Of a stretch of 64,000 nt of DNA, positions 4,675 through 19,690 are shown piece by piece. The notes beneath the pieces were generated by a model, which worked only from the letters and a program-made list of their open reading frames with translations, was not told the DNA's origin and searched no databases. Each line of letters starts with the position of its first letter. Within the stretch, counting starts at the first letter, position 1. A program made the position numbers and the translations under genes. The DNA lies in NCBI GenBank assembly GCA_964596395.1, contig CAZQSY010000003.1, forward strand, positions 25,678 to 89,677. Direction: 5' to 3'. This stretch comes from an uncultured Candidatus Saccharibacteria bacterium. GTDB lineage: Bacteria; Patescibacteriota; Minisyncoccia; Phycocordibacterales; UBA9973.

Positions 4675-5976
4675 TCACTTGGCGGTCGGACTACCAAGCA
4701 AATCGAGCAATTCTTCCAGAGAAACAATTTTGCCTTTCTCTTCGTTCCGTTTTTTCAGCTCCACACCCCCCTCTTTCATGCTCCGTAGGGAGATAACTGC
4801 CCTGTACGGCATGCCCAACAAATCGGCGTCGGCGAATTTTTCCCCGGCCGAAATTTCTTCCCGGTCGTCAAAAAGCGCCTCTACCCCCCTCGCCCGCAAA
4901 GCGCCATAGACGCGCTCGGCTTCTTTTTTCACCGCTTCGCTCCCAGAAAGCGAGAGAAGGTGCACTTTAAACGGAGCGATCGATTCGGGCCAGATGATAC
5001 CCTTGTCGTCAGATAAAACCTCAACCACCGTGCCCATCAGGCGTCCCAAGCCGATGCCGTAGCTTCCCATTATTACCAATTTCTCTTCCCCTTTCTCATC
5101 CCGATATTTAAGGTCAAAAGGCGCCGAGAATTTCGTCCCGAGAGAAAAGATATTCCCGACTTCGATTGCCTTGCGCTCCGCCAGTTTTTCCCGCGCCAGA
5201 CCCAAATCCGCAAGTACTTCGTCGTTTGATACTTCCTGGTTCACGGCGATGTTTTTTTCTTCGTCTATATATATGGTGTCTTCTCCGGCCGAGGTCACCG
5301 TCTGGAACTCGTGCGAGAATTTTGAAAAAGTTCCGCCCGAAGCAAAGGTCAGGTACGTCAAATGCCCGATGCCGGCGCGCTTGAAAATATTCACGTAAGC
5401 GCCTTTTATTTTTTCGTAGAAAGCGTTGTGCTCTGCCTCGTCTCTGCAAAAAGAATACAGCGCCTTCCAGTAAAACTCCCTGCCCCGCATCATGCCCGAC
5501 TTGCTCCTTACCTCATTTCTGAAAATATTTTTAAAATCGTACGGATAAATCGGCAGGTCTTTGTAAGAGCTCACGTACTGTTTCAATATGTTCGAGTAGG
5601 CCTCTTCGTTGGTAAAAGACAAACCGACTTCCCCGCCGTTTTTTAATTTTGCCTTAAACCAAACGTCCACCACTTCGTCGCTCCAGCGGTTAGTTTTTTC
5701 CCAGATTTCTTTGTTCTGAAGCACCGCCGTGCGCATTTCCGCGCCACCGACGGCATCCATCTCTTCGCGAATTATATTTTCAATTTTGTTTAAAACCCGC
5801 AAGCCGAGAGGCAGGTACGAATAAACCCCCGCCATTTCCTTGCTTATATATCCCGCGCGAATCAGAAGCTCTGCGTTTTTAGACGTCTCGTCGGCCGGGG
5901 CTTCTTTTCTGGTTTTGGTAAAAAGTTGAGATTGTCTCATGTCCCCCATACTAACCGAAAAAACCCCTTCGGTCAA
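4675..5976 (-). CDS. proS: prolyl-tRNA synthetase, bacterial type lacking the editing (INS) domain
   Basis: 'MRQSQLFTKTRKEAPADETSKNAELLIRAGYI' matches the bacterial ProRS N-terminus. Class II motifs are present, there is a C-terminal anticodon-binding domain, and the length is 433 aa. Confidence 0.9.
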   Translation of the reverse strand: MTEGVFSVSMGDMRQSQLFTKTRKEAPADETSKNAELLIRAGYISKEMAGVYSYLPLGLRVLNKIENIIREEMDAVGGAEMRTAVLQNKEIWEKTNRWSDEVVDVWFKAKLKNGGEVGLSFTNEEAYSNILKQYVSSYKDLPIYPYDFKNIFRNEVRSKSGMMRGREFYWKALYSFCRDEAEHNAFYEKIKGAYVNIFKRAGIGHLTYLTFASGGTFSKFSHEFQTVTSAGEDTIYIDEEKNIAVNQEVSNDEVLADLGLAREKLAERKAIEVGNIFSLGTKFSAPFDLKYRDEKGEEKLVIMGSYGIGLGRLMGTVVEVLSDDKGIIWPESIAPFKVHLLSLSGSEAVKKEAERVYGALRARGVEALFDDREEISAGEKFADADLLGMPYRAVISLRSMKEGGVELKKRNEEKGKIVSLEELLDLLGSPTAK

Positions 5977-5990
5977 AGATTAATTCCGTG

Positions 5991-6019
5991 TTGCAAAAAC
6001 AGTTTTCTTCTGCTAGAAT
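5991..6019 (+). promoter_or_regulatory. sigma70-like promoter with extended -10 (TTGCAA-17-TGCTAGAAT)
   Basis: ttgcaa at 5991-5996, 17-nt spacer, tgc-tagaat at 6011-6019. An ATG at 6027 sits about 7 nt after the -10 element, so the rpsB transcript may be leaderless. Confidence 0.45.
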
Positions 6020-6026
6020 GCCTCGC

Positions 6027-6767
6027 ATGCAAAAAACCGAAAACACCGGCGCCGGGGCGGCGGCTGACATCGAGAAAATGTTCGAAGTGGGCGCGCATTA
6101 CGGCTACACGAGAGGCAGAAGGCACCCTTCAATCTCTCCTTATATATACGCCACCAAGAAAAACGGGGACATAATTGACTTAGAGAAAACATCCGCCCTG
6201 CTTCAAAACGCGGCGGAGTTCGTAAAACACCTCGGCTCGCAGAACAAGATAATGCTCTTGGTAGGAGCGAAGCCGGAAGCGAGAGATACGATAAAAAACG
6301 CGGCCGAAAAGCTTTCTATGCCTTTCGTCGCTCTGCGCTGGATAGGCGGAACCATTTCGAACTTCGGAGAAATAAAAAAGAGGATCGCCGAACTGGAAAA
6401 ATACAACAAAGATGTCGCCGAGGGCAATCTGGAAAAGTACACCAAAAAAGAAAGAGTGGTACTGGCCAAGAAAATGGAGAAGCTTACAAAATACTACTCG
6501 GGACTGCTTTCGCTCAAGAAAACCCCAGACGCGCTTTTCGTAATTGACGCAAAAGCCGAAAAAATCGCCGTTACCGAAGCGAGAGACGCCGGCGTGCCGG
6601 TGGTGGCGCTTCTTAATTCTGATTCAGACATAAAGGCCGTCGACTGGCCCATCGTGGCAAACGACGCGAGCGTGCCTTCAATCAAACTTTTCGTAAACGC
6701 GATTGTGTCGGCTTACGAGGAAGGAAAGATGTCTATACCGGAGCCGAAAATAGAAACAAAAAAATAA
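6027..6767 (+). CDS. rpsB: 30S ribosomal protein S2
   Basis: 'VGAHYGYTRGRRHPSISPYIYATKKNGDIIDLEKT', 'IMLLVGAKPEA', 'ALRWIGGTISNF', 'VIDAKAEKIAVTEARDAGVPVVALLNSDSD'. The track start at 5988 lies inside the promoter. A start at 6027 (or 6078) is more likely. Confidence 0.85.
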   Translation: MQKTENTGAGAAADIEKMFEVGAHYGYTRGRRHPSISPYIYATKKNGDIIDLEKTSALLQNAAEFVKHLGSQNKIMLLVGAKPEARDTIKNAAEKLSMPFVALRWIGGTISNFGEIKKRIAELEKYNKDVAEGNLEKYTKKERVVLAKKMEKLTKYYSGLLSLKKTPDALFVIDAKAEKIAVTEARDAGVPVVALLNSDSDIKAVDWPIVANDASVPSIKLFVNAIVSAYEEGKMSIPEPKIETKK

Positions 6768-6768
6768 A

Positions 6769-7548
6769 ATGCCGGGAGCAGTAACCACCAACTTGATAAA
6801 GGACTTGCGGGACGCGACGGGCGTCTCGGTGATGCAATGCAAGAACGCACTCGAAGAAGCCGGGGGTGACATGGAAAAAGCGCTCTCTATTTTGAAACGG
6901 GTCAGCGCCGACATAGCGCTCAAAAAAGCAGGCCGCGATGCCAAGGATGGCAGGGTCTCGGTAAAAAGCGACGGCAAAAAGTCAGTACTGGTGGCGCTCC
7001 ACTGTGAGACGGATTTCGTGGCCAAGAACGAGGATTTTGTGAAGCTTCTTGCTTCCCTATCCGATATTGCCTTTGAAGAAGGGCCTGAAAAAATGAAAGA
7101 AAAAGCCGAAGACATGATAAACCCGGTGATTCAGAAAACCGGCGAGAAAATAGAACTCGGGGACGTGTACGAAGTGAAAGGAGAAATATTGGGAAGCTAT
7201 GTGCACAACGACAAATCGGCGGTTATCGTGTCTCTTTCGGGAGGCAGCGCGGAACTGGCCAAAGACATAGCCATGCACATCACCGCCATGAAGCCCGAAT
7301 TTTTCTCGCGCGAAGAAATCACCGAAGAAGCCCGAAAGGCGGCAAACCAGATGTTCTCGAAAGAAGTCGAGGAATCCGGCAAACCCGAAGACATAAAGAA
7401 AAAAATCCTGGAAGGCAAGGTAAGTTCTTACTTTAAGGAAAAGACCCTGCCCGACCAGGCATTCATAAAAGACCCCGATACGACGATAGAAAAACTTCTC
7501 TCGGACAACAAAGCGAAAGTGCGGGAGGTGAAACGTTATACTATATGA
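6769..7548 (+). CDS. tsf: elongation factor Ts
   Basis: 'LIKDLRDATGVSVMQCKNALEEAGGDMEKALSILKR' is the UBA-like N-terminal domain of EF-Ts. The gene sits in the conserved rpsB-tsf arrangement. Confidence 0.9.
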   Translation: MPGAVTTNLIKDLRDATGVSVMQCKNALEEAGGDMEKALSILKRVSADIALKKAGRDAKDGRVSVKSDGKKSVLVALHCETDFVAKNEDFVKLLASLSDIAFEEGPEKMKEKAEDMINPVIQKTGEKIELGDVYEVKGEILGSYVHNDKSAVIVSLSGGSAELAKDIAMHITAMKPEFFSREEITEEARKAANQMFSKEVEESGKPEDIKKKILEGKVSSYFKEKTLPDQAFIKDPDTTIEKLLSDNKAKVREVKRYTI

Positions 7549-7976
7549 GCATAATAATGGCATTACCCACACCCCTGTATTTTCTTCTAGCTTCGCTTTT
7601 GGGAATGGTTTTCATGGTCAGCCGAAAAATCTTCCAGCTTAAAAACGGAGAAGCCGAATACGCGACGAATGCGGACACGATGGGCTTTGACCTTGAAAAA
7701 ATAAGGCATTTCGTCTGGCGAGGCGTCAGAAATCTGGGATACATCACCCTCTTCCTGTCCCTCCGTTTATTCATGAAAACGTCAAACTTTTTGAAAGTGA
7801 AAGGCAAGATGCTCTTGCAGAAGATAGAAGACAGATTCATGCGGGATGAAGAAAAGCTCATGGGCGGAATAGTTAAAAACAAAGAGGTCTCAAAATACCT
7901 GCGGATGATTTCGGATTACCGCGAGAAAATCCGCCGAATGAAGCATATAATAAAAGAGGAGGAGGGTATAAAATAA
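7545..7976 (+). CDS. hypothetical small membrane protein, 2 predicted TM segments
   Basis: Its start codon overlaps the tsf stop in an ATGA arrangement. Hydrophobic segments LYFLLASLLGMVFMV and GYITLFLSLRLF are followed by a Lys/Glu-rich tail. Confidence 0.4.
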   Translation: MSIIMALPTPLYFLLASLLGMVFMVSRKIFQLKNGEAEYATNADTMGFDLEKIRHFVWRGVRNLGYITLFLSLRLFMKTSNFLKVKGKMLLQKIEDRFMRDEEKLMGGIVKNKEVSKYLRMISDYREKIRRMKHIIKEEEGIK

Positions 7977-8452: not shown

Positions 8453-9559
8453 GTGCTAAAATTAACAGCACGAATGTGCAGGCAATTTTTCAGGGCACAA
8501 AATTTTTTGCTTGTTCTCCTTTTGTCGGGGGTCTGGTTTATCTTTGCGGGAACAAGTATCCGCTCTTCCGCGCAAGAGACAAGCACGGTCAGCACCGACA
8601 CCGCTGAAATAATTCCGCAGGACGAGACGCCCGCAAGCGCGGAAGAAAATCCTCCTCCAGATGAGACGAGTGCCGTAAGCGGCGATAATGCTGAACCAAT
8701 CCCGCAAAATGAAACACCTGTGACTGTGGAAGAAAATCTTTCCCCCTCTAATGAGACAAACACAACAACAAGTGGTGTTGGTACCGAACCAATCCCGCAA
8801 AATGAAACACCTGTGACTGTGGAAGAAACCGCCGTAGAGAATCCGGAGGAAACAATTTCCCCGACAACTCTTCCGCCAGAAGAAAACCCGATACCGGAAA
8901 CACCCGAAGAAGAAGCCGGCGCGGCTGATGTCCCGGGAGAACTGCCTCCCGAATCACTGCCTCCCGAATCAGACACAAACATTGTCCCGGCAGAAGAAAC
9001 AACAGAGACAGGCGCTCCCGCGGATACCGGGGGTGAAGAAACAGCCGCACCGGCAACCGAAGATCTCGAAGGAATCTTCACCGAGGAAGAACCAGAAGCG
9101 GCGCTTCCTGAAGAACTGGCGGAAGAGGTCTTACCCGAAGCACTTGTCGAGGAGCCCCCTTTCATAGCTCCTCTCGTACAGAGATTAAAAGATAGAAGAT
9201 TAGACAGGGAAATAAAAATCGACAGCGGCGCTTCTCATAAATGCGAAGTTATTGATTTTAATCTTGATGTCTCGAACCAAGACCTGGCAGTAGCCGAAAT
9301 GATACTGGACGGCGATCGGGAAAATTTTTCAAAAGAAGAACTGGAAATCGGCAACTTGCCGCCCGGCATAGATATGACGTTTTTGGGAAGCGGAGGATAC
9401 AAGTACTCGCCGACTAAAGACGAAAATTCTCTATATCTGCAGGTAACCAAAGAAGAAAACACGCTCGAGGGAAATTTTAATCTGTCAATAATATACACCG
9501 GAACAAAGGAAAACAGCGACTCGATAACTTTGTGTCAAATAAATGTGATAAATCTTTGA
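8453..9559 (+). CDS. secreted acidic low-complexity protein with an internal tandem repeat and a C-terminal globular domain
   Basis: N-terminal hydrophobic signal/anchor (FLLVLLLSGVWFIFAGTSIRSSAQE). A long E/P/T-rich region contains the duplicated peptide EPIPQNETPVTVEE. The non-repetitive C-terminal ~130 aa favours this strand over the overlapping antisense ORF. Confidence 0.55.
   Translation: MLKLTARMCRQFFRAQNFLLVLLLSGVWFIFAGTSIRSSAQETSTVSTDTAEIIPQDETPASAEENPPPDETSAVSGDNAEPIPQNETPVTVEENLSPSNETNTTTSGVGTEPIPQNETPVTVEETAVENPEETISPTTLPPEENPIPETPEEEAGAADVPGELPPESLPPESDTNIVPAEETTETGAPADTGGEETAAPATEDLEGIFTEEEPEAALPEELAEEVLPEALVEEPPFIAPLVQRLKDRRLDREIKIDSGASHKCEVIDFNLDVSNQDLAVAEMILDGDRENFSKEELEIGNLPPGIDMTFLGSGGYKYSPTKDENSLYLQVTKEENTLEGNFNLSIIYTGTKENSDSITLCQINVINL
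8693..8735 (+). repeat. 43-bp perfect direct repeat, copy 1 (GAACCAATCCCGCAAAATGAAACACCTGTGACTGTGGAAGAAA)
   Basis: Identical to 8786-8828. It encodes the duplicated peptide EPIPQNETPVTVEE in the acidic protein. Confidence 0.9.
8786..8828 (+). repeat. 43-bp perfect direct repeat, copy 2
   Basis: Identical to 8693-8735. Confidence 0.9.
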
Positions 9560-9565: not shown

Positions 9566-11344
9566 ATGAAAGGTAAAAAAAAATTATTTCTGAAAATATT
9601 TCTACTCGTGATTTCTTTTTCCTGCCTTTTCCTGGTTCCGAAAAAATCCGAAGCAGTCATAGCGACCAGCGGCTCGGCACAGCTCAAGACCATAACCACT
9701 GGCGACACGCTGGTTTTTGATTCTTGGACGCCAACGGCAAACATACTGACAATAGTAATGATAGCTCAAAGAGACGAATCTATTTCCGCCACTATTTCCG
9801 GCAACAACTTGACTTGGACGCAAATCCGCGACAAGGATTGCGGACGCGCGCAGTGCGGCGTGGTGGTATGGAAAGGCACCGGGGCAAGTCCGTCTACCGG
9901 CACAACGACGGTTACCATAACCGGCAACTTAAAGCCCGTGTCCGGCATTATCCAGCAATTCAGCGGTGTTGACGCGACCACGCCGGTCGAGGCAGATAAT
10001 GTTGATTCGCATGGCTCGACCGACGACGACGACATGCTGGCCTCGGTGACAACAGTAACCTCGGGCGCTTGGGCGGTAGCCTTCGGCACAAGCCGGGGTA
10101 CAAACGCATTCACTACTCCCGGCGGAGAAAACACAATCAGCATAAACCAAATAGCCGGGTCTGGCGGTGATTTGATAAGGGCGCATATGTGGTATGAGGG
10201 GCCAGTATCCACACCCGCTTCAACCCAGCTCGGCGCATTAAACGACCTCTCGGGAGCATCCGACTGGGCTGAGGTCGTCATTTCGATAAAGCCCTCCCGT
10301 TTATTCACACAATCCGCGTACCGTTTTTTCGAAAACATCGATTCAGCCACTGCCACTACCCCGATGGTGGCGCAAGATACAGCGGCCACGCTCTCGGCCG
10401 CAGGAGACGCTTTTCGCCTTAAAATGCTCTTGCACTATGACGGTCCTGATTTTCCAGCCAATGGAGAAACCTGGAAACTTCAATTCGCCGAAAAATCCGG
10501 CACCTGTGACACGGGTTTTTCGGGAGAATCATATTCAGATGTTACTGCCGCCACCGTAATAGCTTACAAAGACAATTCCACTCCGGCTGACGGCAACAAC
10601 ACGGGTGCCGACGGCGACGACCCGACGCATAGCGGCCACACCATAGTGAACGAAAATTACGAGGAATCAAACAACTTCGCAAACGCCGGTTCATACATCC
10701 CCGACGGCGCGGACGCGAAATGGGATTTTTCGCTTAAAGACAACGGTGCCACCGCAAGCACGGCCTACTGTTTTCGTGTATTAACGTCGGGCGGCTCGCA
10801 GCTTAATACTTATTCGGTGATACCGCAAATCACGACTGCTTCTTCCAGCGCGCTTACTTTCAGCATTTCCGACAACTCGGTCGGCTTCGGCACGCTCTCT
10901 ACCAGTGCCGCGCGTTACGCCACAGGGGATTTGAGCGGAAGCGCATCTGAAACACCTGCCCACACAATTATTGCGTCCACTACCGCTTCGTCCGGATATG
11001 TAATTACCGTAAACGGCTCCACACTCGCCTGCTCCGCCTGCGGGGGCGCGACTGTAAGCGCAATCGGCGGCACAGCTACCGCGTCTTCGGCGGGTACGGA
11101 ACAATTTGGCATAAACTTAGTTTACTCCGGCGGCTCGGGAACGGCATCTTCCCCTTACAACGACCAAACATCCGCTTATACTTTCGCTTTTGACACGGCA
11201 AATTTTCCCGACCAAATAGCGTCATCTTCGGGCACATCTACCGATACCACTTATTCGGTGTATTATCTTGGAAACATATCCCCCACCACCGATGCCGGGA
11301 GTTACAGCACCACGCTTACTTATATAATCACAGCCACTTTTTAA
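9566..11344 (+). CDS. large secreted T/S/G/A-rich surface protein with a WxL-like C-terminal motif
   Basis: Signal peptide MKGKKKLFLKIFLLVISFSCLFLVPKKSEA. 592 aa of beta-rich, low-charge sequence. The C-terminus '...SYSTTLTYIITATF' is shared with the next gene ('...DYTDTLTFIATANF'). Confidence 0.5.
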   Translation: MKGKKKLFLKIFLLVISFSCLFLVPKKSEAVIATSGSAQLKTITTGDTLVFDSWTPTANILTIVMIAQRDESISATISGNNLTWTQIRDKDCGRAQCGVVVWKGTGASPSTGTTTVTITGNLKPVSGIIQQFSGVDATTPVEADNVDSHGSTDDDDMLASVTTVTSGAWAVAFGTSRGTNAFTTPGGENTISINQIAGSGGDLIRAHMWYEGPVSTPASTQLGALNDLSGASDWAEVVISIKPSRLFTQSAYRFFENIDSATATTPMVAQDTAATLSAAGDAFRLKMLLHYDGPDFPANGETWKLQFAEKSGTCDTGFSGESYSDVTAATVIAYKDNSTPADGNNTGADGDDPTHSGHTIVNENYEESNNFANAGSYIPDGADAKWDFSLKDNGATASTAYCFRVLTSGGSQLNTYSVIPQITTASSSALTFSISDNSVGFGTLSTSAARYATGDLSGSASETPAHTIIASTTASSGYVITVNGSTLACSACGGATVSAIGGTATASSAGTEQFGINLVYSGGSGTASSPYNDQTSAYTFAFDTANFPDQIASSSGTSTDTTYSVYYLGNISPTTDAGSYSTTLTYIITATF

Positions 11345-11481
11345 GTACTCAAAGTTATCCACAGCCCCGCAGACAAAAATACGTTTACGCTGTTATATAA
11401 TGATATATGTTGAAGCTCGCAAGGGTGCTCATAATCAAAAGTCGCTACTTTACTAATTTATAATTTTTATGTTGCTTTTTT

Positions 11482-12657
11482 ATGAATAAAAAATCGTTTA
11501 AGTTTTGGAAGTCGTTCGTCGGCACCTGGCTCATAGCAGGTCTTTTCCTACTGACCATCGCAGGGCTCTTACCAAATAAAGCGCAAGCCGCGACACTCCT
11601 CAACATGAGCGACACTCTAAGCACTCAAAAAGCGAGCACGGTGGCGAACCACACAATCGTCTTCCGCACTCCTACCGGCGCCGCTGAAAACACCGACACC
11701 ATAACACTCACCTTCTCGGCCGACTTTACCATGAACTCGGTCGCCTTCGGCGACTTTGACCTCGCGCACTCGGCCGGTAGCCAGTCCGACTGTGCCGCCC
11801 CAACATACACAAACGAAGAAACTCTGGCAGCTAGCGCCTCGGACACCGAATGGGGTGCGGCTCTTTCCGGCCAAGTCATAACCTTCACCGCCCCGACCGA
11901 CGGCGTAGGTGCGGCAGCAATCGCGACGAATGCCTGCGTACAGATACAAATCGGTACCAATGCCACCGCGGGCGCTACCGGCGACACCCAAATCACGAAC
12001 GGCGCCGCCGATGACGATGACACGGTAGCTATCGCCGGAACCTTCGGCGATTCGGGCACTATCACGGTAGATATAATTGATGACGACCAGGTAAGCGTCT
12101 CAGCTACCGTTAACCAATCCGTGACTTTCGATATAGACGTCGGTACGGCCGGGAATGAAAACACCGACACTCCTTACGATGTGGCTTTGGGAACAATTAC
12201 CGTAACAGATACGCGCGTCTCAGGAGCGACGGACTCGGTAAACAGAATAATGATGGACTTGGATACAAACGCCACCAGCGGCGCCACAGTAACAGTTAGA
12301 AATACCAACGGCGCCAACGGTCTTGTCTCTACGGCAGTGGGAGCCGACAACATAGGCAGTGCTGACGGCGCGATAGCCGACGGCACCGAAAATTATGGTC
12401 TGTGTGTTATATCCGTAACGCAAACCACCGGAACCCTTTCAAAAGCTTCTCCTTATAACTCTGGTTCCTGCGCGGCAGACACTGAAACAAACGATATACA
12501 AGGATTAACCACTACCGGAGAAAATATTGTGACTTCTACGGCTCCGCTTGCCGGAGGCCGGGCACAAGTAGCCGTAAACGCGGCAATCAGCGGAGTCACC
12601 GTGGCCCACTCGGATTATACTGATACGCTCACCTTTATCGCTACGGCGAACTTTTAA
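11482..12657 (+). CDS. secreted surface protein, paralogous C-terminal motif (WxL-like)
   Basis: Signal peptide ...LLTIAGLLPNKAQA. 'TITVTDTRVSGATDSV' resembles the v.DtRg..GWsL region of WxL domains. The C-terminus 'YTDTLTFIATANF' resembles the terminal 'LtWtL' WxL motif, with W replaced by F/Y. Confidence 0.5.
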   Translation: MNKKSFKFWKSFVGTWLIAGLFLLTIAGLLPNKAQAATLLNMSDTLSTQKASTVANHTIVFRTPTGAAENTDTITLTFSADFTMNSVAFGDFDLAHSAGSQSDCAAPTYTNEETLAASASDTEWGAALSGQVITFTAPTDGVGAAAIATNACVQIQIGTNATAGATGDTQITNGAADDDDTVAIAGTFGDSGTITVDIIDDDQVSVSATVNQSVTFDIDVGTAGNENTDTPYDVALGTITVTDTRVSGATDSVNRIMMDLDTNATSGATVTVRNTNGANGLVSTAVGADNIGSADGAIADGTENYGLCVISVTQTTGTLSKASPYNSGSCAADTETNDIQGLTTTGENIVTSTAPLAGGRAQVAVNAAISGVTVAHSDYTDTLTFIATANF

Positions 12658-12723
12658 CCGAAAAAGAATAATTAGAACCGGCAGAAGCTCCCGAAGCTCG
12701 ACAATATCGAGAAAGAACACATT

Positions 12724-13731
12724 ATGCGAAAACTTTTTTTCATAATATTCACCCTGGCGGCACTTTTTACGGCGGGTTCTGTATCGGCGCTTACCGTATC
12801 TCCCGTACGTATAGAAATCGCGGGCGACCCGGGAACGACCCTTTCGGGTGCAATAGAGCTTTTTAACGAACAAAATAACCAGGGAGAAAAAGTTTTCTAT
12901 ACTTCTTTTGAAAATTTTGAACCATCTGGCGACACGGGAGCTCCGCGCTTCATTGGGGCAAAAGACGGTCTGGCTACCTGGATAAAATCAGAGGGTAAAG
13001 TCGTTCTCGATTCGGGTGTACGAGTCACCGTCCCTTATTCTATCGATATACCCAAAGAAGCAGAGCCGGGCGGATATTTCGCGGCAATCTTTTTCGGCAC
13101 GCAAGACCCGGGGTCCCAAGGAGAGGGCCAGGTTTCGGTGGGCGGCAAAATCGGGGTACTCATGATGCTTCGGGTTACCGGCGACATAGAAGAAAATGCC
13201 GGACTTTTGGATTTTTCAGCCAAAGAAAAAAAGAGGTTTTTCACTTCCCTGCCCGTCACTTTTACCTATAGAATAAACAACGCGGGCGGAGACAGAATTA
13301 TGCCGAGCGGGGAAATAAAAATCAAAAACACTTTTCAATTTAAAACCGCCGAGCTTCCGGCCAATAAGAACTCGGGAAACATTTTACCGGGAAGCTCCAG
13401 AAAATACGAAGTAACCTGGGGAGAAGAAACGGCAGGGACCTCTGCCGAAGAAAACGCGGAAATTTCAAAGATAAAAAAATATTGGCAGGATTTCTTAGGG
13501 AAAACAAAAAACCAGCTGAAGGCGTTTCATTTTGGATGGTATAGGGCAGAACTAGACCTATCTTGGAGCGCCGAGAAACAAACCGCCAATGCTTCTTATA
13601 GTTTCTTCATTATACCTTGGCAGATTCTCTTGTTGGCCGGTATCGTTTTGCTCATACTGCTCAATCTGGGTGGAAGAATAATAAGAAGATACAACCGATG
13701 GATTATTGCTAAGGCAAGCGCGCAAAGATGA
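12724..13731 (+). CDS. cell-surface protein with signal peptide, two beta-sandwich-like domains and a C-terminal TM anchor (DUF916/DUF3324-like architecture)
   Basis: Signal peptide ...AGSVSALTVSPVRIEI..., where 'VSPV' resembles the start of DUF916. A C-terminal TM segment IIPWQILLLAGIVLLILLNLGG is followed by the basic tail RIIRRYNRW. Same strand as, and directly after, the two WxL-like genes. Confidence 0.4.
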   Translation: MRKLFFIIFTLAALFTAGSVSALTVSPVRIEIAGDPGTTLSGAIELFNEQNNQGEKVFYTSFENFEPSGDTGAPRFIGAKDGLATWIKSEGKVVLDSGVRVTVPYSIDIPKEAEPGGYFAAIFFGTQDPGSQGEGQVSVGGKIGVLMMLRVTGDIEENAGLLDFSAKEKKRFFTSLPVTFTYRINNAGGDRIMPSGEIKIKNTFQFKTAELPANKNSGNILPGSSRKYEVTWGEETAGTSAEENAEISKIKKYWQDFLGKTKNQLKAFHFGWYRAELDLSWSAEKQTANASYSFFIIPWQILLLAGIVLLILLNLGGRIIRRYNRWIIAKASAQR

Positions 13732-14250
13732 ATGAAGCCGAGAAAGCTCAAGCAAAACATATCGGCGGCAATTCTATGCTTAAGTTTGGGATTCTTCGCC
13801 TTTTCTCTCGTTAGCCGAGCGGATATAGACGTGCAAGTAACCGCTACTGTAGAGGGTTGCGGGGATGGCGCTATCGGGGCAGGAGAAGAATGTGATGGTG
13901 CAAACCTAAATGGCGCTTCATGTGTTTCGCAGGGATTTGACGGTGGCACCCTCTCCTGCGGAACTTTCTGTCTCTTTAATACCACCTCCTGTACTCTGGG
14001 CGGAGGAGGCGGAGGCGGGGGTATTCGCACGCCTATAAGAGAAACCGATACTGAGTCGCCAAAATGCGGCATCGCCGATTTTAACTGCGACACCAGGGTG
14101 GATATTCTCGACTTCAGCATTCTGCTCTATTATGAAAGTTCCGGCGCTGGAAGCACATTATATGAAGAACACGACCTTTCCGGCGACCAGAAAATAAATA
14201 TGGTCGATATATCTATAATGTTCTATTACTGGACCAACACCGAAGTATAA
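13732..14250 (+). CDS. secreted protein with a Cys-rich repeat (myxococcal CGDG...EECD type), a poly-Gly linker and a C-terminal dockerin domain
   Basis: Signal peptide. 'CGDGAIGAGEECDGANLNGASC' is the Cys-rich repeat. GGGGGGGG is the linker. Two 12-residue Ca-binding loops match the dockerin consensus D-x-[ND]-x-D-x-x-[VI]-[ND]-x-x-D: DFNCDTRVDILD (+FSILLYY) and DLSGDQKINMVD (+ISIMFYY). Confidence 0.6.
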   Translation: MKPRKLKQNISAAILCLSLGFFAFSLVSRADIDVQVTATVEGCGDGAIGAGEECDGANLNGASCVSQGFDGGTLSCGTFCLFNTTSCTLGGGGGGGGIRTPIRETDTESPKCGIADFNCDTRVDILDFSILLYYESSGAGSTLYEEHDLSGDQKINMVDISIMFYYWTNTEV

Positions 14251-14259
14251 AATTTTTAA

Positions 14260-15159
14260 ATGGTAAAAGACAAACACGCATTAAAATATAAAAAATGGCC
14301 AGCGGTGATTCTGATTCTGGCGGTTTTTGCGGTTTTTGGAAAGACGTTTGCCGAAAGTCCGTCCATCAACCAAATTTACCTAGAGGGTCCGGTTTCAGTT
14401 ATGGCTCCAGGGTCAGAATTTGCGGTAAGCGTTTACGCCCAAACAAAAAGCCCGATAAATGCCTTTGAGGTTGAACTCGAATATCCGAGAGAAAATCTAC
14501 GCTTTTTAAATTACGACAACGCCGGCTCGATTGCCGATATCTGGCAAACGGAACCATCCCCCGCGAAAGACGGAAAAATCAAAATGACGGGCGGAATCAT
14601 CGGAGCTTTTCGGGGAGAGGAAGGACTTGTAGCAAAATTACACTTCAGAGCCGTCAAAAGCGGCCTAGCTCGATTCTCCGTTGTTAAAAAAAATTTCTAC
14701 TTGGCTGACGGTAGGGGTACGGAGGTAGAAGCTGCGACAAATAATTTCTCTGTGAACATCGCGGGGGGAGCAAGTGTACCGTTCTTATTCCTTCCTCCGC
14801 CTCCAAAAGACAACACTCCGCCCAATCTTTATTTGGAAGTAGTCAAGAATCCGCCCGGCAGTCCCCCCTTGGTAACATTTTACGCCGCCGATAAAGAATC
14901 GGGCATAAAAAACACGGAAATGCGTTTCAAAAATTGGCTCAACTTCACGGAATGGCAAAAAGTCAAAAGTCCCGCCCTGTACCCTTCCGGGGCATGGTAT
15001 CTTGAAATCAAGGCCACAAACGGAGCCGGAAAAGAAACGACAGAAAACTTCTTATCTATTGAGAATCTGACTTTAAAAATAGCCAAGGTATTCTTCGCCT
15101 CCACAATCTTGGCCGTCTTGGTGAATGCGTTGTATAATAAATTTAGGCGGAAAAAATAA
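14260..15159 (+). CDS. membrane-anchored cohesin-domain protein
   Basis: N-terminal TM/signal (WPAVILILAVFAVFG). A cohesin-like segment '...EFAVSVYAQTKSPINAFEVELEYPRENLRFLNYDNAGSIADIWQ...DGKIKMTGG...GLVAKLHFRAVKSGLARFSV' matches the cohesin pattern (source strands, then 'v.l.yDp..L..v....G.l', then 'g.i.f.g', then 'tl..i.Fk.'). C-terminal TM IAKVFFASTILAVLVNALY. Confidence 0.55.
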   Translation: MVKDKHALKYKKWPAVILILAVFAVFGKTFAESPSINQIYLEGPVSVMAPGSEFAVSVYAQTKSPINAFEVELEYPRENLRFLNYDNAGSIADIWQTEPSPAKDGKIKMTGGIIGAFRGEEGLVAKLHFRAVKSGLARFSVVKKNFYLADGRGTEVEAATNNFSVNIAGGASVPFLFLPPPPKDNTPPNLYLEVVKNPPGSPPLVTFYAADKESGIKNTEMRFKNWLNFTEWQKVKSPALYPSGAWYLEIKATNGAGKETTENFLSIENLTLKIAKVFFASTILAVLVNALYNKFRRKK

Positions 15160-15163
15160 ACAC

Positions 15164-17173
15164 ATGAAACGCTTCACTTTTTTTATTGTTTCTCTTGTTT
15201 TTCTGGCTCTGCCGGGGATAAGCAAAGCGGCAACTTTGTTGCTTTCTCCGCAAGTCGGCAATTTTTCTGTCGGCTCCACTTTCAATGTCTCAATACTTTT
15301 AGATACCAAGGGTCAATCGGTAAACGCCCTGGAAGTTTCGCTTTCCTTTCCCCCCGACATGCTCCAAGTTATATCGCCGTCAACCGGCCGCTCCATAATA
15401 GAGGTCTGGACGGCTAGTCCGAAATTTGACAACAAAAGCGGCAAAATAGAACTCAGGGGCGGCATCCCGGGGGGCATAAGTGCTTCGAGCGCCCTCGTTT
15501 CTACCGTAACTTTCAGGGTTAAGTCCGTAGGAGAAAGCGCGATTAAGTTCTTAGATAACTCAAAGGTGCTACTCAACGACGGCCTAGGCACCAATGTTTT
15601 GAATCAGACGGTAAATGGGGTCTACGGTTTTAATCTTCCGCCTCCAGCCGGTCCAACTGTGGTTTCAGACACTAATCCCGACCAGGCAACATGGTATTCA
15701 AGCAAAACGGTCTCTTTAAAATTCATAAGCCAAGGTGGGGGCACGGAAGACGGATACAGTTACATACTCTCAGACAATCCCACCACTATCCCAGACGACA
15801 TAAGCGAAGGTAAGAAAAATTCAGTTTCCTACACGAACCTCACCGACGGTACGCATTATTTCCACGTCAAAGCCATGCGGGCGGGAAGCTGGGGAGGAAC
15901 GACTCATTTCGCGATTAAAATTGATTCTACTCCGCCGGCTGATTTCAAAATTGACATCGCCCCTTCAGCCCGCACCTCCACCCGCCAGCCGATTATCCAA
16001 TTCTTGACGACCGATACCCTGTCGGGAATCGAGAGTTATGATTTAAAAATAGTACCCTTGTCCGCCTATGGAAACAAAACCAGCGCCGGCGAATTTTTCA
16101 TTGAAGCAGAAAGCCCTTATTTCCCGCAAACCCTATCCGTCGGCAATTACGACGTGATTGTCCGCGCTTATGACAAATCCGGCAATTTCAGGGAGGTGAC
16201 AAAACGCCTGCAGGTGGTAGCTCCCGTTTTCTCTTTTATCTCCGCCGACGGAATAAAAATCTGGAGCATTTTAATCCCGTGGATTTATGTTTGGATTTTC
16301 CTTTTCTTGTGTATCATCGCCTTGGCGTACCTGGCTCACCGCACTAGACGCTGGCGGCACACGGTGCACTCCGCGCAAACCGAAGGCAAATTGCCGGAAG
16401 ACGTGCAAAGAGAACTCGAAGAGCTCAAGAAATACAGGGAAAAATACGGCACAGCTGTTTTGGTGCTGGCTTTGATTTTATCTTTGACACTCATCTTCCC
16501 CGGCCTGACCGAGGCCCAGACCCCCCAAATCGCTCCGCCACTCATCCAAAGCATTTCTAAAAATATTTCCAACGAAGAAATATTTTACGTCGGCGGAAAA
16601 ACGGATTTTGCCGACGAGAAGGTAATCATCTATCTGCAAAACCTGCAAACCGGCGAAACCTTCAGCCAATACATCGAAAGCGACAGTAAAGGCGACTGGT
16701 TCTATCGGCATGGCGGCTTTCTGTCTCCAGGAAACTATCTTTTGTGGACGCAGGGAAAAATAGGCGAAGAACTCTCCCCTCCCAGCCCTCAAGCCAAAAT
16801 GACGGTGAGCAGGACAGCGGTAGAATTCGGTAGCGGTCGACTTAGCTACGAGATGATTTACCTACTGATAGTGATTTTGCTCTCGGTGTGCCTGTTGGGG
16901 TTGGGTATTTATATAATTTTCCATCTCTATCACGGAAAGAAAAAGCACGCTGAACTAAAAAAGGACATCATGGAAGCAGAAGAATCTATAAAGCGGGGTT
17001 TTGCGGTGCTAAAAAGAGACATAGAAGCCGAACTCAGACTCATAAACAAAATGAAGTTATCATCCGCTATGTCTGCTGAAGAGAAGATTAGAGAAAACCA
17101 GCTTTTGTCAGACCTGGAAAACATCCAGCAAAAAATCGGCCAAGAAATCTGGGAAATTAGCGAAGAGGCCTAG
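15164..17173 (+). CDS. multi-domain membrane protein: signal peptide, cohesin domain, Ig/FN3-like domains, 3 TM segments, C-terminal coiled coil
   Basis: Likely start is MKRF at 15164. Cohesin-like 'FNVSILLDTKGQSVNALEVSLSFPPDMLQVISPSTGRSIIEVWTASPKFDNKSGKIELRGG...ALVSTVTFRVKSVGESAIKF'. 'DGTHYFHVKA' marks the Ig-like domains. TM helices lie at approximately residues 385-410, 450-470 and 555-580. C-terminal EELKKYREKYG and KDIMEAEESIKRGFAVLKRDIEAEL are coiled coil. Confidence 0.55.
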   Translation: MKRFTFFIVSLVFLALPGISKAATLLLSPQVGNFSVGSTFNVSILLDTKGQSVNALEVSLSFPPDMLQVISPSTGRSIIEVWTASPKFDNKSGKIELRGGIPGGISASSALVSTVTFRVKSVGESAIKFLDNSKVLLNDGLGTNVLNQTVNGVYGFNLPPPAGPTVVSDTNPDQATWYSSKTVSLKFISQGGGTEDGYSYILSDNPTTIPDDISEGKKNSVSYTNLTDGTHYFHVKAMRAGSWGGTTHFAIKIDSTPPADFKIDIAPSARTSTRQPIIQFLTTDTLSGIESYDLKIVPLSAYGNKTSAGEFFIEAESPYFPQTLSVGNYDVIVRAYDKSGNFREVTKRLQVVAPVFSFISADGIKIWSILIPWIYVWIFLFLCIIALAYLAHRTRRWRHTVHSAQTEGKLPEDVQRELEELKKYREKYGTAVLVLALILSLTLIFPGLTEAQTPQIAPPLIQSISKNISNEEIFYVGGKTDFADEKVIIYLQNLQTGETFSQYIESDSKGDWFYRHGGFLSPGNYLLWTQGKIGEELSPPSPQAKMTVSRTAVEFGSGRLSYEMIYLLIVILLSVCLLGLGIYIIFHLYHGKKKHAELKKDIMEAEESIKRGFAVLKRDIEAELRLINKMKLSSAMSAEEKIRENQLLSDLENIQQKIGQEIWEISEEA

Positions 17174-17874
17174 GGTTTTGAAACGCTTTCGCTTCCCTTC
17201 TCCTCTGTCGCGCCTTCTTCGAGCTTAAAGGATTTCTTTATCCGTGAATCAAGCTCTTCAATATCGCGGAAGCCGGTCAAAACATCGTCCTCGATAACAA
17301 GCGCCGGCAATTCCGTATCCTTGATTTTGTAAATCTGGAGCATCGAGCGCACCGCCGAAAGGTCTATATTGAAATCAAAAGAATAAACGCGCAGGTCGCT
17401 ATATTTCTCGCGCAAGGCAGAGAGCACCAAACCTTCTTTCTCGCAGTCAGAGCACCTGTTCTTATCGGTGTAAAAATAAAGTATAAAAGCCGTTTTCTTG
17501 CCGCAACGCTCCGAAATTCTCTTGGAAAGCAGGTAATCTTTTATCTCTAACAGAGAGTAATATTTCTTTAAATACATAACTTCATCAGTCATACCAAGAT
17601 TTTTTTCACTCCATTCCAGTTTCTGCCCGAGCTCCGAGAGCTCCTGGGACAAAACAGAGTGGGAAATATTCTTACAGGAAAGCTCCGACAAGAGCGAATA
17701 CTGCGCCTCAGAGGAAAGAATGTCTATGGCGATATTGTCTTGTATCGATTTGAGCTGCTTCACCTTTCTGTCGCTGAGATAGCCGCTCAGGTAACTAGCC
17801 GATAAAAAAATACCGGCGGTAAACAAAAAAACTATTAAATATTTTTTCCAGTCAATGTTGTGTTCTGGGTGCAT
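17170..17874 (-). CDS. membrane-anchored thioredoxin-fold-like protein with a CxxC motif (hypothetical)
   Basis: N-terminal TM (LIVFLFTAGIFLSASYL). 'TAFILYFYTDKNRCSDCEK' is a CxxC motif in a beta-alpha context reminiscent of thioredoxin/DsbA. The assignment is weak. Confidence 0.3.
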   Translation of the reverse strand: MHPEHNIDWKKYLIVFLFTAGIFLSASYLSGYLSDRKVKQLKSIQDNIAIDILSSEAQYSLLSELSCKNISHSVLSQELSELGQKLEWSEKNLGMTDEVMYLKKYYSLLEIKDYLLSKRISERCGKKTAFILYFYTDKNRCSDCEKEGLVLSALREKYSDLRVYSFDFNIDLSAVRSMLQIYKIKDTELPALVIEDDVLTGFRDIEELDSRIKKSFKLEEGATEEKGSESVSKP

Positions 17875-17901
17875 GTTTTTTTCGTTTAAAACCGCCCTGG
17901 G

Positions 17902-19149: not shown

Positions 19150-19202
19150 GTTTTACCGGCAAAACCGCGCAAAAACCGCGGGATTCCTTATATTATAGCA
19201 TA

Positions 19203-19240
19203 AAAATCAAAACTCCGCCACCTTTTTCAGGCCGGCGGAG
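19203..19240 (-). terminator. intrinsic terminator downstream of the DUF378 gene
   Basis: On the minus strand, the hairpin CTCCGCC-(14 nt)-GGCGGAG is followed by UUUUGAUUUUU. Confidence 0.4.
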
Positions 19241-19267
19241 CTTTGAAAAACGCTGAGTATTCTTTAA

Positions 19268-19564
19268 CTACATACTGCTTCCTTGCCCGCCGTCTTGCTT
19301 TGGCTCACAAACCCCGTCTTTGCATTTTTCACACCCGCAACCAAATATCGTCATCACACCCGCCACACCGACAAGCAAATAAACCAGCGCTTCAACAAGC
19401 GGAACCGAACCGAGCAGCATACCGACTATGTTCCATCCGCTGTAACTTCCAAGGAACATACCGAGGCCAACTAGACCCCAGTTTACGGCACCTACGACAA
19501 CCAGCACCTTGACCAAAACGCTCACGGTGCAACCCCACTTGCCGCAGCAATATCCTTTACACAT
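19268..19564 (-). CDS. DUF378-family small membrane protein with Cys-rich termini
   Basis: 'VVGAVNWGLVGLGMF...WNIVGMLLG' matches the DUF378 pattern. Cys clusters MCKGYCCGKWGC and CGCEKCKDGVC lie at the termini. Confidence 0.55.
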   Translation of the reverse strand: MCKGYCCGKWGCTVSVLVKVLVVVGAVNWGLVGLGMFLGSYSGWNIVGMLLGSVPLVEALVYLLVGVAGVMTIFGCGCEKCKDGVCEPKQDGGQGSSM

Positions 19565-19596
19565 AGTTTTTTGTTTTTAATTATTTATAATTTTCA

Positions 19597-19616
19597 ACCT
19601 GCCTGCCGACAGGCAG
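19597..19616. repeat. REP-1 palindrome copy 2 (CCTGCCTGCCGACAGGCAGG, 1 substitution)
   Basis: Intergenic, about 100 bp upstream of the RAYT-like transposase gene. Confidence 0.75.
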
Positions 19617-19663
19617 GGACCCTTCACGGTACATATTATACCACGACTTCGTTTTCTTTAGTT

Positions 19664-19690
19664 AAAATGAGCAAGGACTCCCCTTGCTCA
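19664..19690 (+). repeat. 27-bp hairpin repeat, left copy (AAAATGAGCAAGGACTCCCCTTGCTCA; 9-bp stem, 5-nt loop)
   Basis: Identical to 20394-20420, in direct orientation, flanking the Y1 transposase gene. Confidence 0.85.

Follow-up and report, generated by a model that had tools for sequence, protein, structure and literature searches.

Related surface systems

The Pam pilus of Candidatus Mycosynbacter amalyticus was described in 2026 and is comprised of the pilins PamA, PamB, PamE and PamT, the chaperones PamC and PamD, and PamR (Troman et al., bioRxiv 10.64898/2026.03.03.709456; NCBIfam NF058581 and NF058579). The Pam pilin model, NF058581, derives from proteins whose filaments were observed by cryo-EM (bioRxiv 10.64898/2026.03.03.709456). 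The WxL clusters of Firmicutes encode a large protein, variable at its N-terminus, together with a small one and an anchored partner, WxLIP; the WxL proteins are described as monomers bound to peptidoglycan rather than as fibres (PMC9772566, PMC10599100). According to a published prediction, a hairpin strand of WxLIP enters a gap in WxL (PMC10599100).

The window, a 64,000-nucleotide stretch of DNA, belongs to a CPR bacterium of Parcubacteria/Paceibacteria type, which has no outer membrane, whereas the Pam paper stresses Saccharimonadia and Microgenomatia (bioRxiv 10.64898/2026.03.03.709456). It contains an operon that is best explained as a variant of the very recently described Pam system; its genes most likely encode a Pam-type donor-strand pilus, a thin surface fibre of this ultrasmall member of the Patescibacteria (CPR). 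The two systems share Sec signal peptides on all components, the lack of an usher, restriction to CPR and organization as a single operon, although the ATP synthase neighbourhood of Pam is not found at the window operon. The gene order (pilin, pilin, partner, dockerin protein, cohesin proteins) is kept across 44 species-level genomes. The functional unit covers at least 9566-17173, beyond the limits set by the first-pass annotation, and perhaps starts at 8453; all features lie on the forward (+) strand. Every component would be exported via Sec, and the fibre would be assembled without an usher, by chaperone-assisted donor-strand exchange.

A shared C-terminal domain

The first two genes encode a large secreted protein of 592 aa (9566..11344) and a smaller one of 391 aa (11482..12657). 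They share a whole C-terminal domain of ~170 aa (hhalign 99.9%, E 7e-32; 30% identity over 169 aa by BLASTP), and the domain of 11482 was retrieved as the same domain by jackhmmer (3.8e-54). In 9566 the domain (10826..11341; jackhmmer, alignment A4, hhalign) closes with the final strand AGSYSTTLTYIITATF-COOH, and 11482 ends in HSDYTDTLTFIATANF; both endings are where the first-pass annotation had placed them, and the shared motif that it had pointed out is kept in homologues. The window and 44 related genomes provide 79 ORFs with the domain; in each of them it extends to the very last residue, with the consensus A-G-x-Y-x-x-T-L-T-[YF]-x-x-T-A-x-[FY]. Y(-13), Y/F(-7) and F/Y(-1) are each conserved in 79/79, T(-8) in 75/79 and T(-4) in 73/79; the common motif is far beyond chance. 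The final strand, TLT[YF]IxTAxF-COOH, would line the acceptor groove of an incomplete Ig-like domain. Such a domain with a conserved C-terminal strand is also found in chaperone-usher pili (Pap/Fim, Caf1, Csu, CFA/I), and PF00419 (Fimbrial) gave weak matches in 11/78 of the C-terminal domains.

The same termini bear on the idea of a Gram-positive type, sortase-assembled pilus or a TasA/BslA-like matrix fibre, which is barely credible here. The 79 proteins all terminate in ...TAx[FY]-COOH and have neither an LPXTG motif nor a C-terminal transmembrane (TM) sorting signal, and the operon contains no sortase. The fold matches are to generic Ig-like sandwiches at 4-15% identity.

It had been proposed that the two proteins carry WxL domains in which the eponymous Trp is replaced by Tyr/Phe. 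The terminal motif of the window proteins does resemble that of WxL (Y-x-x-x-L-T-[W/Y/F]), and the shared domain of the client proteins is always C-terminal in both systems. Three conserved blocks line up with WxL motifs by eye, but the substitution itself is unproven, and the window motifs contain no Trp. No PF13731 (WxL) match was found in the window proteins or in 78 + 39 homologues at E <= 10, hhalign against real enterococcal WxL domains gave a probability of <1%, and shuffle tests were at chance level in three of four comparisons and marginal in one (p ~0.011). The resemblance of the pilin domain to WxL is thus at the level of the motif only, and it is the partner protein (below) that upholds the suggested likeness to a WxL locus. 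By contrast, residues 450-592 of 9566 pass the curated model NF058581 (CPR_Pam_pilin_C) with 84 bits against a cutoff of 55. The CPR Pam pilus is a better-fitting family than WxL. Unlike their Pam counterparts, the C-terminal domain of 11482 and the partner, 12724, are unrecognized by every NCBIfam Pam model.

A tip candidate and a shaft candidate

The protein encoded at 9566 is a candidate tip subunit. Its signal peptide (aa 1-29) is followed by a lineage-variable region (aa 30-243), a conserved middle domain (aa 244-420) and the Pam-type acceptor domain (aa 421-592). Conservation among its relatives is confined to aa ~244-592, and the first-gene proteins span 289-2095 aa. Ahead of the C-terminal domain lies a segment that varies across relatives and has no V-x-V-x-A-T-V donor motif (described below). 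With an acceptor domain, a variable N-terminal part and no donor motif, 9566 would cap the distal tip as an adhesin; in contrast to Pam, the window has no stand-alone PamT-like tip. Alternatively, proteins of the 9566 class may also be shaft pilins, with a donor sequence of their own: among those with the 9566 middle domain, the pre-domain segment 'TYSVIPQITTA' is conserved.

The 11482 protein is the candidate shaft (major) pilin. It consists of a signal peptide (aa 1-36), an N-terminal beta-sandwich (aa 37-196), a linker (aa 197-213) and the acceptor domain (aa 214-391), with a Cys pair in each domain (C104/C151 and C308/C330), as in PamA/B; it also contains the TVTDTRVSG noted in the first-pass annotation. 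The AF2 model, which like that of 12724 is of a monomer, has two beta domains (pLDDT 87.8) joined by an unstructured, low-confidence linker, and so reproduces the PamA/B plan of a beta-sandwich, an unstructured linker strand and an incomplete Ig-like C-terminal domain. Its 529 homologues are all from Patescibacteria wherever the source is named, and in 39/39 loci that have room for it, a gene of this class immediately precedes the partner gene.

The linker is near-invariant (DDDQVSVSATV), with D202, V204, A208 and V210 invariant in alignment A2. The pattern DDQVxVxATVxQS is present in 38/38 alignable small pilins and absent from the first-gene proteins. The most conserved parts of the pilins are the linker and the C-terminal strand, as is reported for PamA/B (bioRxiv 10.64898/2026.03.03.709456). 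This conservation marks Q-V-S-V-S-A-T-V (aa 203-210; 12088..12111) as a candidate donor strand; in the monomer model the region is not a strand (pLDDT ~62). The linker of each subunit would insert into the groove of its neighbour to yield a linear polymer. Tip, shaft and terminator would then follow the logic of chaperone-usher pili, but with two-domain pilins, and with the donor strand in an internal linker instead of an N-terminal extension (the proposed terminator, discussed below, is the exception).

Unless subunits donate strands to one another, it is difficult to account for a linker that is near-invariant yet unstructured and that the dockerin protein imitates at its N-terminus. This, the missing PF13731 signal and the match to a model built on filament-forming proteins make it unlikely that the locus encodes a WxL-type static surface complex, in which 12724 would display both C-terminal-domain proteins by strand insertion with no polymerization. 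That alternative draws on a layout mirroring the large WxL, small WxL and WxLIP genes (PMC9772566, PMC10599100), the blocks that look like WxL motifs, the one marginal shuffle test, and the identity of the partner.

The membrane-anchored partner

The third gene (12724..13731) encodes a two-domain protein of 335 aa, a candidate PamC/PamD-like assembly chaperone. It was correctly recognized beforehand, from its signal peptide, VSPV, two beta domains, C-terminal TM helix and basic tail, as a DUF916-like anchored protein. Sequence and the AF2 model (pLDDT 84.4, two beta domains) place the signal peptide at aa 1-22, domain 1 at aa 23-166, domain 2 at aa 178-296 and the TM helix at aa ~297-321, with the basic tail extending to aa 335; the VSPV forms part of LTVSPV. 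This is the architecture of the WxLIP of Bacilli, with its two Ig-like domains. The family comprises 7980 clusters at 50% identity, and the gene is the most conserved of the module.

The top Foldseek match of the model in the PDB was the Enterococcus faecium WxLIP (DUF916-DUF3324; 9i1y_A, E 1.5e-10), and 9i25_C, a WxLIP bound to long WxL, was also matched. RbmA followed, and then the chaperone-usher chaperones CfaA, CsuC and Caf1M (E ~2e-7), which share the two-domain fold. PF06030 (WxLIP_PGBD) was matched individually by 45/131 diverse family members (best E 2.9e-7); the only sequence matches of the family profile in the PDB below E 0.01 were to EfmWxLIP1 (E 0.004), and 0/3000 shuffles reached the real score. 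The protein is a distant DUF916/WxLIP homologue, although, unlike in WxLIP, its second domain is not detectably DUF3324 in family-member and profile comparisons. PapD_N and PapD_C (Pfam) gave no signal in the family. That WxLIP is both the top structural match and the only significant sequence match in the PDB speaks for the static complex considered above.

A hairpin in domain 1 (aa 116-151; 13069..13176) is the candidate groove-complementing element, on the basis of conservation and the profile alignment. It comprises a strand, a disordered loop (aa 126-142; pLDDT <50 at aa 132-140) and the conserved strand K-I-G-V-L-M-M-L-R-V, in which G144, L146, L148 and V151 are >=90% conserved among the 131 diverse members. 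The family profile aligns the loop with the corresponding loop of EfmWxLIP1. By the donor-strand pilus reading, 12724 would hold newly exported subunits, with the hairpin strand in their groove, until the linker of the next subunit replaced it; like the WxL partner, it is predicted to complete the beta-sandwich of its client by strand insertion. In chaperone-usher pili an usher and an outer membrane are present and the chaperone is not membrane-anchored. PamC and PamD are described as PapD/FimC-like with a C-terminal TM helix, and the window has one partner gene where Pam has two chaperones. Because it also matches RbmA, 12724 may alternatively be a PamR-like anchor.

The dockerin adaptor and cohesin proteins

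As had been annotated, dockerin and cohesin genes lie directly downstream. The first (13732..14250) encodes a small secreted adaptor, a candidate pilus terminator or anchor on the evidence of its Dockerin_1 match (Pfam, 26.0 bits; cutoff 22.9), synteny and co-variation; where there is room for it, the gene after that of the partner encodes a homologue (43/44 loci). The signal peptide (aa 1-30) is followed by a donor-like strand, a Cys-rich module (aa 43-88), a Gly run and the dockerin (aa ~106-169). The strand, V-Q-V-T-A-T-V (aa 34-40; 13831..13851), lies at the mature N-terminus and is identical to the VSVSATV of the window pilin linker at 5/7 positions. [VI]x[VI]xAxV occurs within 6 aa of the Cys-rich module in 37/45 family members, compared with 1.6% of background ORFs.

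The next gene (14260..15159) encodes a membrane protein, a candidate dockerin receptor. Its cohesin-like module is N-terminal (aa 38-175) and is followed by a second beta domain; a TM helix and a basic tail make up the C-terminus. The protein was retrieved by jackhmmer with the 15125 cohesin module as seed; PF00963 was matched by 30/51 modules of the family, while the whole 14260 protein had no Cohesin match in Pfam. The second candidate receptor (15164..17173) crosses the membrane several times and has a cohesin module at its N-terminus (nt 15230-15679) as well as Ig-like domains; the start at 15164 is that of the public gene call (669 aa), and the mechanical ORF starts at 15125. When isolated, its module matches Pfam Cohesin (25.9 bits; cutoff 24.1), and its best PDB profile matches are cellulosomal cohesins.

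Dockerins and cohesins co-vary perfectly, with cohesin genes in 32/32 dockerin loci and 0/5 dockerin-less loci (Fisher p 2.3e-6, in a test that ignores phylogeny; the loci L028, L030 and L037 are close relatives). In one locus, L008, a C-terminal TM helix and basic tail take the place of the dockerin, paralleling the proposed TM-anchored terminator PamR. Carrying only the donor-like strand, 13732 would fill the last groove and halt growth, and the cohesin modules of 14260 and 15164 would bind its dockerin and so hold the base of the fibre at the cell. These proteins stand in place of the RbmA-like TM terminator of Pam (PamR), which the window lacks; WxL clusters lack both this module and a conserved donor linker between domains.

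Cohesins and dockerins occur widely among CPR surface proteins, and those of the window exceed the Pfam thresholds. As in cellulosomes, the dockerin has Ca-loops in duplicated segments and the cohesins are on cell-bound proteins. It is nonetheless highly unlikely that a cellulosome-like scaffold is the real system, with 12724 and the two large proteins as unrelated neighbours. The five-gene order is kept in 44 species-level genomes, the dockerin protein bears the pilin-linker motif, and where cohesins are missing the anchor becomes a TM helix while the pilins and partner stay. No enzyme-borne dockerin was seen in the operon: unlike in cellulosomes, a small Cys-rich adaptor with a pilin-like donor strand bears the dockerin, and the cohesins belong to integral membrane proteins whose genes immediately follow the pilus genes.

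A possible accessory gene (8453..9559), also for a secreted protein, ends 7 nt upstream of 9566. Its product had no family match in Pfam and NCBIfam searches, and in jackhmmer and motif searches the C-terminal domain of the pilins and the donor motif were both absent from it. It has an acidic, Pro-rich repetitive region and a conserved C-terminal domain of ~120 aa, which is also encoded ahead of the first pilin gene in at least six related loci (L012, L013, L016, L017, L034 and L043).

Two secreted proteins share a Pam pilin domain

Three open reading frames were found where the first-pass annotation had placed two large secreted proteins and an anchored partner: 9566-11344 (592 aa), 11482-12657 (391 aa) and 12724-13731 (335 aa). 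The proteins, named here by their start coordinates, have the features it described; 9566 and 11482 end in AGSYSTTLTYIITATF and HSDYTDTLTFIATANF, respectively, and 12724 has a signal peptide, the sequence LTVSPV and, at its C-terminus, a hydrophobic helix followed by a basic tail. The terminal motif common to the two larger proteins is the tip of a whole shared domain and is not due to chance. Their last ~169 residues are 30% identical by BLASTP, a jackhmmer search seeded with the C-terminal part of 11482 recovered 9566 at 3.8e-54, and the profiles of the two families aligned with 99.9% probability (hhalign, E 7e-32). The motif is also kept in homologues: the domain ends at the last residue in 79/79 ORFs that carry it, taken from the window and 44 related genomes. 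The consensus of these 79 tails is A-G-s-Y-t-a-T-L-T-Y-v-A-T-A-n-F, with Tyr at -13, Tyr or Phe at -7 and Phe or Tyr at -1 in every one of them.

Pfam returned nothing for 9566 or 11482, WxL domains included. In NCBIfam, residues 450-592 of 9566 matched NF058581 (CPR_Pam_pilin_C, ‘Pam pilus system pilin subunit’) at 84 bits, above the curated cutoff of 55. There was no direct match of 11482 to this model; its C-terminal domain is counted as Pam-type because the hhalign (99.9%) and jackhmmer comparisons show it to be the same domain as that of 9566. The commonest weak Pfam match of the pilin C-terminal domain was PF00419 (Fimbrial, a chaperone-usher pilin family), found in 11 of 78 members with a best E of 0.003.

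The Pam pilins PamA and PamB were identified by cryo-EM of filaments of Ca. Mycosynbacter amalyticus, in which the C-terminal domain of PamA/B accepts the linker of the neighboring subunit, i.e., donor-strand exchange. The operon also encodes two PapD/FimC-like chaperones with a C-terminal TM helix (PamC and PamD), a single-domain tip (PamT) and an RbmA-like, TM-anchored terminator, PamR (bioRxiv 10.64898/2026.03.03.709456). The AF2 model of 11482 (pLDDT 87.8) comprises a beta domain (aa 37-196), a low-confidence segment without strands (aa 197-213) and a second beta domain (aa 214-391), and so is predicted to have the Pam pilin plan of beta-sandwich, single linker strand and incomplete Ig-like C-terminal domain. 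When the full-length model was searched with Foldseek, generic two-Ig adhesins were returned at ~29 Å rmsd, which is not specific. PDB sequence searches with the three proteins singly and with two alignment profiles (A1 and A2) gave noise or nothing, and the PamA/B structures were not among the retrieved entries.

The best sigma-70-like site, GTTACA-16-TATAAT at 11301-11328 (+), matches at 10/12 positions and lies within the end of 9566, just 5' of the 137-nt gap preceding 11482. It could raise expression of 11482, the candidate major pilin; this is only a hint, and the promoter and terminator scan of the region was at chance level overall.

A conserved linker separates candidate shaft and tip

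The segment of 11482 that is unstructured in the model is nearly invariant in sequence, with D202, V204, A208 and V210 unchanged across 39 homologues. This combination is the signature given by the Pam authors for a donated linker. The motif FGDxGxITVNILxDDQVxVxATVxQS stands directly before the C-terminal domain in 38/38 alignable small pilins. In the proteins encoded by the first gene of the operon, which range from 289 to 2095 aa, the same C-terminal domain follows variable sequence that is unrelated to the donor motif. The 9566 class shares its C-terminal domain with the small pilins and could be a second shaft pilin; the variable region in place of the donor motif fits instead a putative tip, with an acceptor domain only and a variable adhesin part, above a shaft of small pilins that would be both donor and acceptor. 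For Pam-like donor-strand exchange into a helical filament, the window offers a near-invariant linker and a conserved terminal strand as candidate partners. No stand-alone tip resembling PamT was found: two window ORFs carry the C-terminal domain, neither consists of that domain alone, and the NCBIfam PamT model scored 50.7 bits against a cutoff of 240.

The anchored partner is a distant WxLIP homologue

The AF2 model of 12724 (pLDDT 84.4) has two beta domains (aa 23-166 and 178-296) and a TM helix, with a disordered loop (aa 132-140) followed by a conserved strand. Its top match among solved structures (Foldseek PDB) was the Enterococcus faecium WxLIP, a DUF916-DUF3324 protein (9i1y_A, E 1.5e-10), and 9i25_C, WxLIP in complex with a long WxL protein, was matched as well. 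RbmA came next, followed by the chaperone-usher chaperones CfaA, CsuC and Caf1M (E ~2e-7, TMt 0.42-0.45).

No Pfam model was reached by 12724 itself, and PF06030 (DUF916/WxLIP_PGBD) was absent from it even at E <= 10. Its family is large, with 7,980 clusters at 50% identity in an exhaustive profile search (E <= 1e-3), and the commonest family match among 131 diverse representatives was PF06030, in 45 of them (best E 2.9e-7). The only PDB sequence matched by the partner profile below E 0.01 was EfmWxLIP1 (E 0.004), in an alignment spanning the DUF916 domain. Aligned to the EfmWxLIP1 fragment by hhalign, the profile gave 67% probability (E 5e-5), and in a shuffle test of partner against WxLIP, 0/3,000 shuffles attained the real 20.4 bits. 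These matches, together with the Foldseek result, identify 12724 as a distant DUF916/WxLIP homologue, at the superfamily level, with the WxLIP architecture of signal peptide, two Ig domains and TM helix.

The proposal of a DUF916-like anchored partner is thereby borne out. Of the two Pfam families named there for comparison with this gene, PF06030 is matched by the family but not by the window protein, and PF11797 (DUF3324/WxLIP_HBD) matched none of the 131 members, the shuffle test for domain 2 giving 124/3000. Among the same 131 members there were no matches to PapD_N or PapD_C, and none to a Pam chaperone model in NCBIfam. A homologue search from the EfmWxLIP1 fragment returned near-identical fragments only.

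As a two-domain, PapD/FimC-like protein with a C-terminal TM helix, 12724 is likened to PamC and PamD by description. It could in principle act as an anchor and not as a chaperone; its fold resembles pilus chaperones, as PamC and PamD were described to do, and a chaperone role is the one adopted here. The TM helix opens with ‘FPW’ in the Enterococcus WxLIP and with ‘[FI]PW’ in the 12724 family, in which P298 and W299 are nearly invariant. Two family members, P0345 (686 aa) and P0387 (637 aa), match over 3-4 stretches, pointing to chaperone-like modules that were duplicated in tandem or fused.

Relation of the pilin domain to WxL domains

The first-pass annotation had likened the ends of the two large proteins to WxL domains with Tyr or Phe in place of Trp. 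The WxL proteins, small and large, of an enterococcal WxL cluster were translated as a comparison set (L046:8851-13427; long-read assembly ENA ERZ1331560, heavily broken up by frameshifts). Three blocks correspond by eye. The first strand is LTLVNVPDDFTFGN in the enterococcal WxL proteins and LTFSISDNSVGFGT in the pilin family; motif 1 is VRDTRLPS...PWQLTG or VSDRRGVG...GWNVTV in the former, VTDTRVSG...GATVTV in 11482 and ...GYVITV in 9566; and the C-terminal motifs, both running to the stop, are AGTFTADLTWNLVAGPVA and AGAYTATLTYVATANF, respectively.

Formal tests did not favor the assignment. PF13731 matched 0/117 pilin-family members at E <= 10, and hhalign of the pilin-domain profile with single enterococcal WxL sequences gave a probability below 1%, with the terminal strand alone aligned. 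Of four shuffle comparisons, three were at chance and one, the 9566-type profile against the small WxL protein, was marginal (33/3000). On these results the pilin domain is not placed in the WxL family. The locus was also rejected as a WxL cluster, lacking the defining set of at least two C-terminal PF13731 domains and two Trp-x-Leu motifs, but its partner is a distant WxLIP homologue and its cluster logic is parallel. The original reading is thus partly supported: it was right about the partner and the conserved motif, is unproven for WxL, and for the pilins gives way to the Pam assignment.

Through the distant but significant homology of the partner to WxLIP/DUF916, a CPR pilus is tied to the WxL surface-protein clusters of enterococci, listeriae and lactobacilli, which are poorly understood. 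Donor-strand complementation may accordingly be a theme general to monoderms. A bolder idea, which we regard as possible and rather doubtful, is that Pam pili and Firmicute WxL clusters are branches of one ancient monoderm system. In it, an anchored two-Ig protein (DUF916/WxLIP, equivalent to PamC/D) would complete the incomplete C-terminal beta-sandwich of its clients by strand insertion; the C-terminal domains of WxL proteins and Pam pilins would be homologous, with Tyr or Phe for Trp; and a donor-strand adaptor would end the Parcubacteria-type fiber and tether it non-covalently, the adaptor's dockerin sitting in membrane cohesins. If true, the Parcubacteria-type branch would have an undescribed way to anchor a pilus. 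WxL and DUF916 go unmentioned in the Pam preprint (bioRxiv 10.64898/2026.03.03.709456).

Gene order is kept across Patescibacteria

A scan of one genome per species yielded 44 loci encoding a relative of the partner. The order of genes is kept: a first pilin-domain gene, the small pilin (39/39 loci with room for it), the partner, a Cys-rich dockerin protein (dockerin-family gene in 43/44) and cohesin membrane proteins (34/40). Locus titles include Kaiser-, Taylor- and Nomurabacteria, Parcubacteria, Paceibacterota, Magasanikiibacteriota, Peregrinibacteria and automatically labelled ‘Saccharibacteria’ MAGs. Together with the source names of homologues they indicate restriction to Patescibacteria, with few other labels; the probable class of the window itself is taken from what its closest homologues are called. 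Bacillota, Gammaproteobacteria and Syntrophomonadaceae labels occur on contigs with this operon (loci L001, L010 and L036; partner P0147); as these MAG contigs carry the same CPR operon, the labels are probably binning or labelling errors.

Local duplications elaborate some loci. At L006:11444-11932 and 11942-12985 the partner gene recurs as a partial second copy and the adaptor gene is present twice, L039:3854-9936 holds three consecutive pilin-domain genes, and in L009, L026, L035, L038 and L040 a further pilin-domain gene lies ~3 kb upstream on the opposite strand.

A dockerin adaptor and membrane cohesins

The gene after the partner, 13732, encodes a protein matching Dockerin_1 (PF00404) at 26.0 against a Pfam cutoff of 22.9. 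The isolated module of the membrane protein 15164 (ORF called from 15125) matched Cohesin (PF00963) at 25.9 against a cutoff of 24.1, as did 30/51 modules of the family, and the assignment is also backed by PDB profile matches. The second membrane protein, 14260, is assigned by jackhmmer and family membership only. By domain criteria, 13732 and the cohesin proteins are a predicted dockerin-cohesin pair.

In most genomes the mature dockerin protein begins, directly past the signal peptide, with A-ITVEITATV-PGCGDG; the window version is ADIDVQVTATVEGCGDG. A pattern shared with the pilin linker, [VI]x[VI]xAxV, is present in 37/45 dockerin-family proteins versus 1.6% of background ORFs, and the N-terminal strand of 13732 matches the linker of the window pilin at 5/7 positions. 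By analogy with PapH and the proposed role of PamR, a terminator would be expected to have a donor strand and no acceptor domain, and 13732 is a candidate for that role.

Cohesin genes lie downstream in 32/32 dockerin-bearing loci and in 0/5 dockerin-less loci within 8 kb or more (Fisher p 2.3e-6, without correction for phylogeny). No cohesin genes were found near the latter, L008, L031, L028, L030 and L037. In L008 (1056-2123) a C-terminal TM helix and basic tail, a direct membrane anchor, take the place of the dockerin. The adaptor at L031:5298-5903 has a Pro/Ala-rich stretch and a hydrophobic/basic tail in place of the dockerin, and those of L028 (10973-11683), L030 and L037 have an unrelated ~130-aa domain.

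A proposed tethered pilus and its relation to known systems

The pilin domain, the pilin plan and the anchored, chaperone-like partner place the window locus in the Pam kind. It departs from the known, very recently described Pam pilus in lineage, in its dockerin-cohesin module and in gene content. Unlike the Mycosynbacter operon, it has neither PamT nor PamR, the dockerin protein being the candidate terminator instead, it has one partner gene rather than two chaperones, and it has no ATP synthase neighborhood.

Other pilus types were considered and rejected. For a classical chaperone-usher pilus, there is no usher-sized ORF in the operon, the candidate chaperone is TM-anchored and without PapD_N/C, and the putative donor is an internal linker, not an N-terminal extension. 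For a sortase pilus, 79/79 proteins end in ...TAx[FY] with no LPXTG, and no sortase was found in the operon or in the 10 flanking ORFs scanned (nt 4675-7976 and 17170-30281).

From the observed homologies, conservation and co-variation we infer each step of the following mechanism. The components would be exported by Sec, and the membrane-anchored partner 12724 would complement the pilin groove. Beneath the 9566 tip, 11482 would polymerize by insertion of linker into groove until 13732 terminates the fiber, which dockerin-cohesin binding would then tether to 14260 and 15164. A donor-strand adaptor clipped to the membrane in this way would be new for any pilus, and would give a function to many unexplained CPR cohesin and dockerin genes.

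Patescibacteria make up a large part of bacterial diversity, and most of them live in attachment to other cells; to our knowledge, very little is known of the organelles by which they attach. The first description of the Pam pilus came only in 2026, from one cultivated species of Saccharimonadia. In Parcubacteria-type genomes, as the window locus shows, the same kind of system takes the form of a tightly kept five-gene module, and the ~8,000 clusters of the partner family indicate that it is widespread.

Genes flanking the module

The module is flanked by rpsB, tsf and tRNA-Thr on one side and by a GT2 gene, an IS200-like transposase, rpoD, dnaG and rpoCB on the other. A secreted protein encoded at 8453-9559 (+), ending 7 nt upstream of 9566, is acidic and Pro-rich with repeated ‘EPIPQNETPVTVEE’ units and had no family match. 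Loci L012, L013, L016, L017, L034 and L043 also have its conserved ~120-aa C-terminal domain upstream of the candidate tip gene, and the protein may be another component of the pilus or the surface.

Directly downstream of and convergent with the module, 17170-17874 (-) encodes a protein that is anchored in the membrane, has a CxxC motif (NRCSDCEKEG) in a thioredoxin-like context and gave no Pfam match at 1e-4. A role as an extracytoplasmic disulfide oxidoreductase is possible, and would bear on the pilin Cys pairs and the Cys-rich adaptor. Also adjoining the surface module is a multi-pass family-2 glycosyltransferase at 17902-19149 (-) (Glycos_transf_2, 2e-31; weak chitin-synthase-like match). 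A link to pilin or envelope glycosylation is conceivable, since a serine of PamA bears an unidentified modification (bioRxiv 10.64898/2026.03.03.709456). An IS200-like Y1 transposase (PF01797, 2.3e-8) is encoded at 19720-20394 (+), 2.5 kb downstream of the module and before rpoD-dnaG-rpoC-rpoB.
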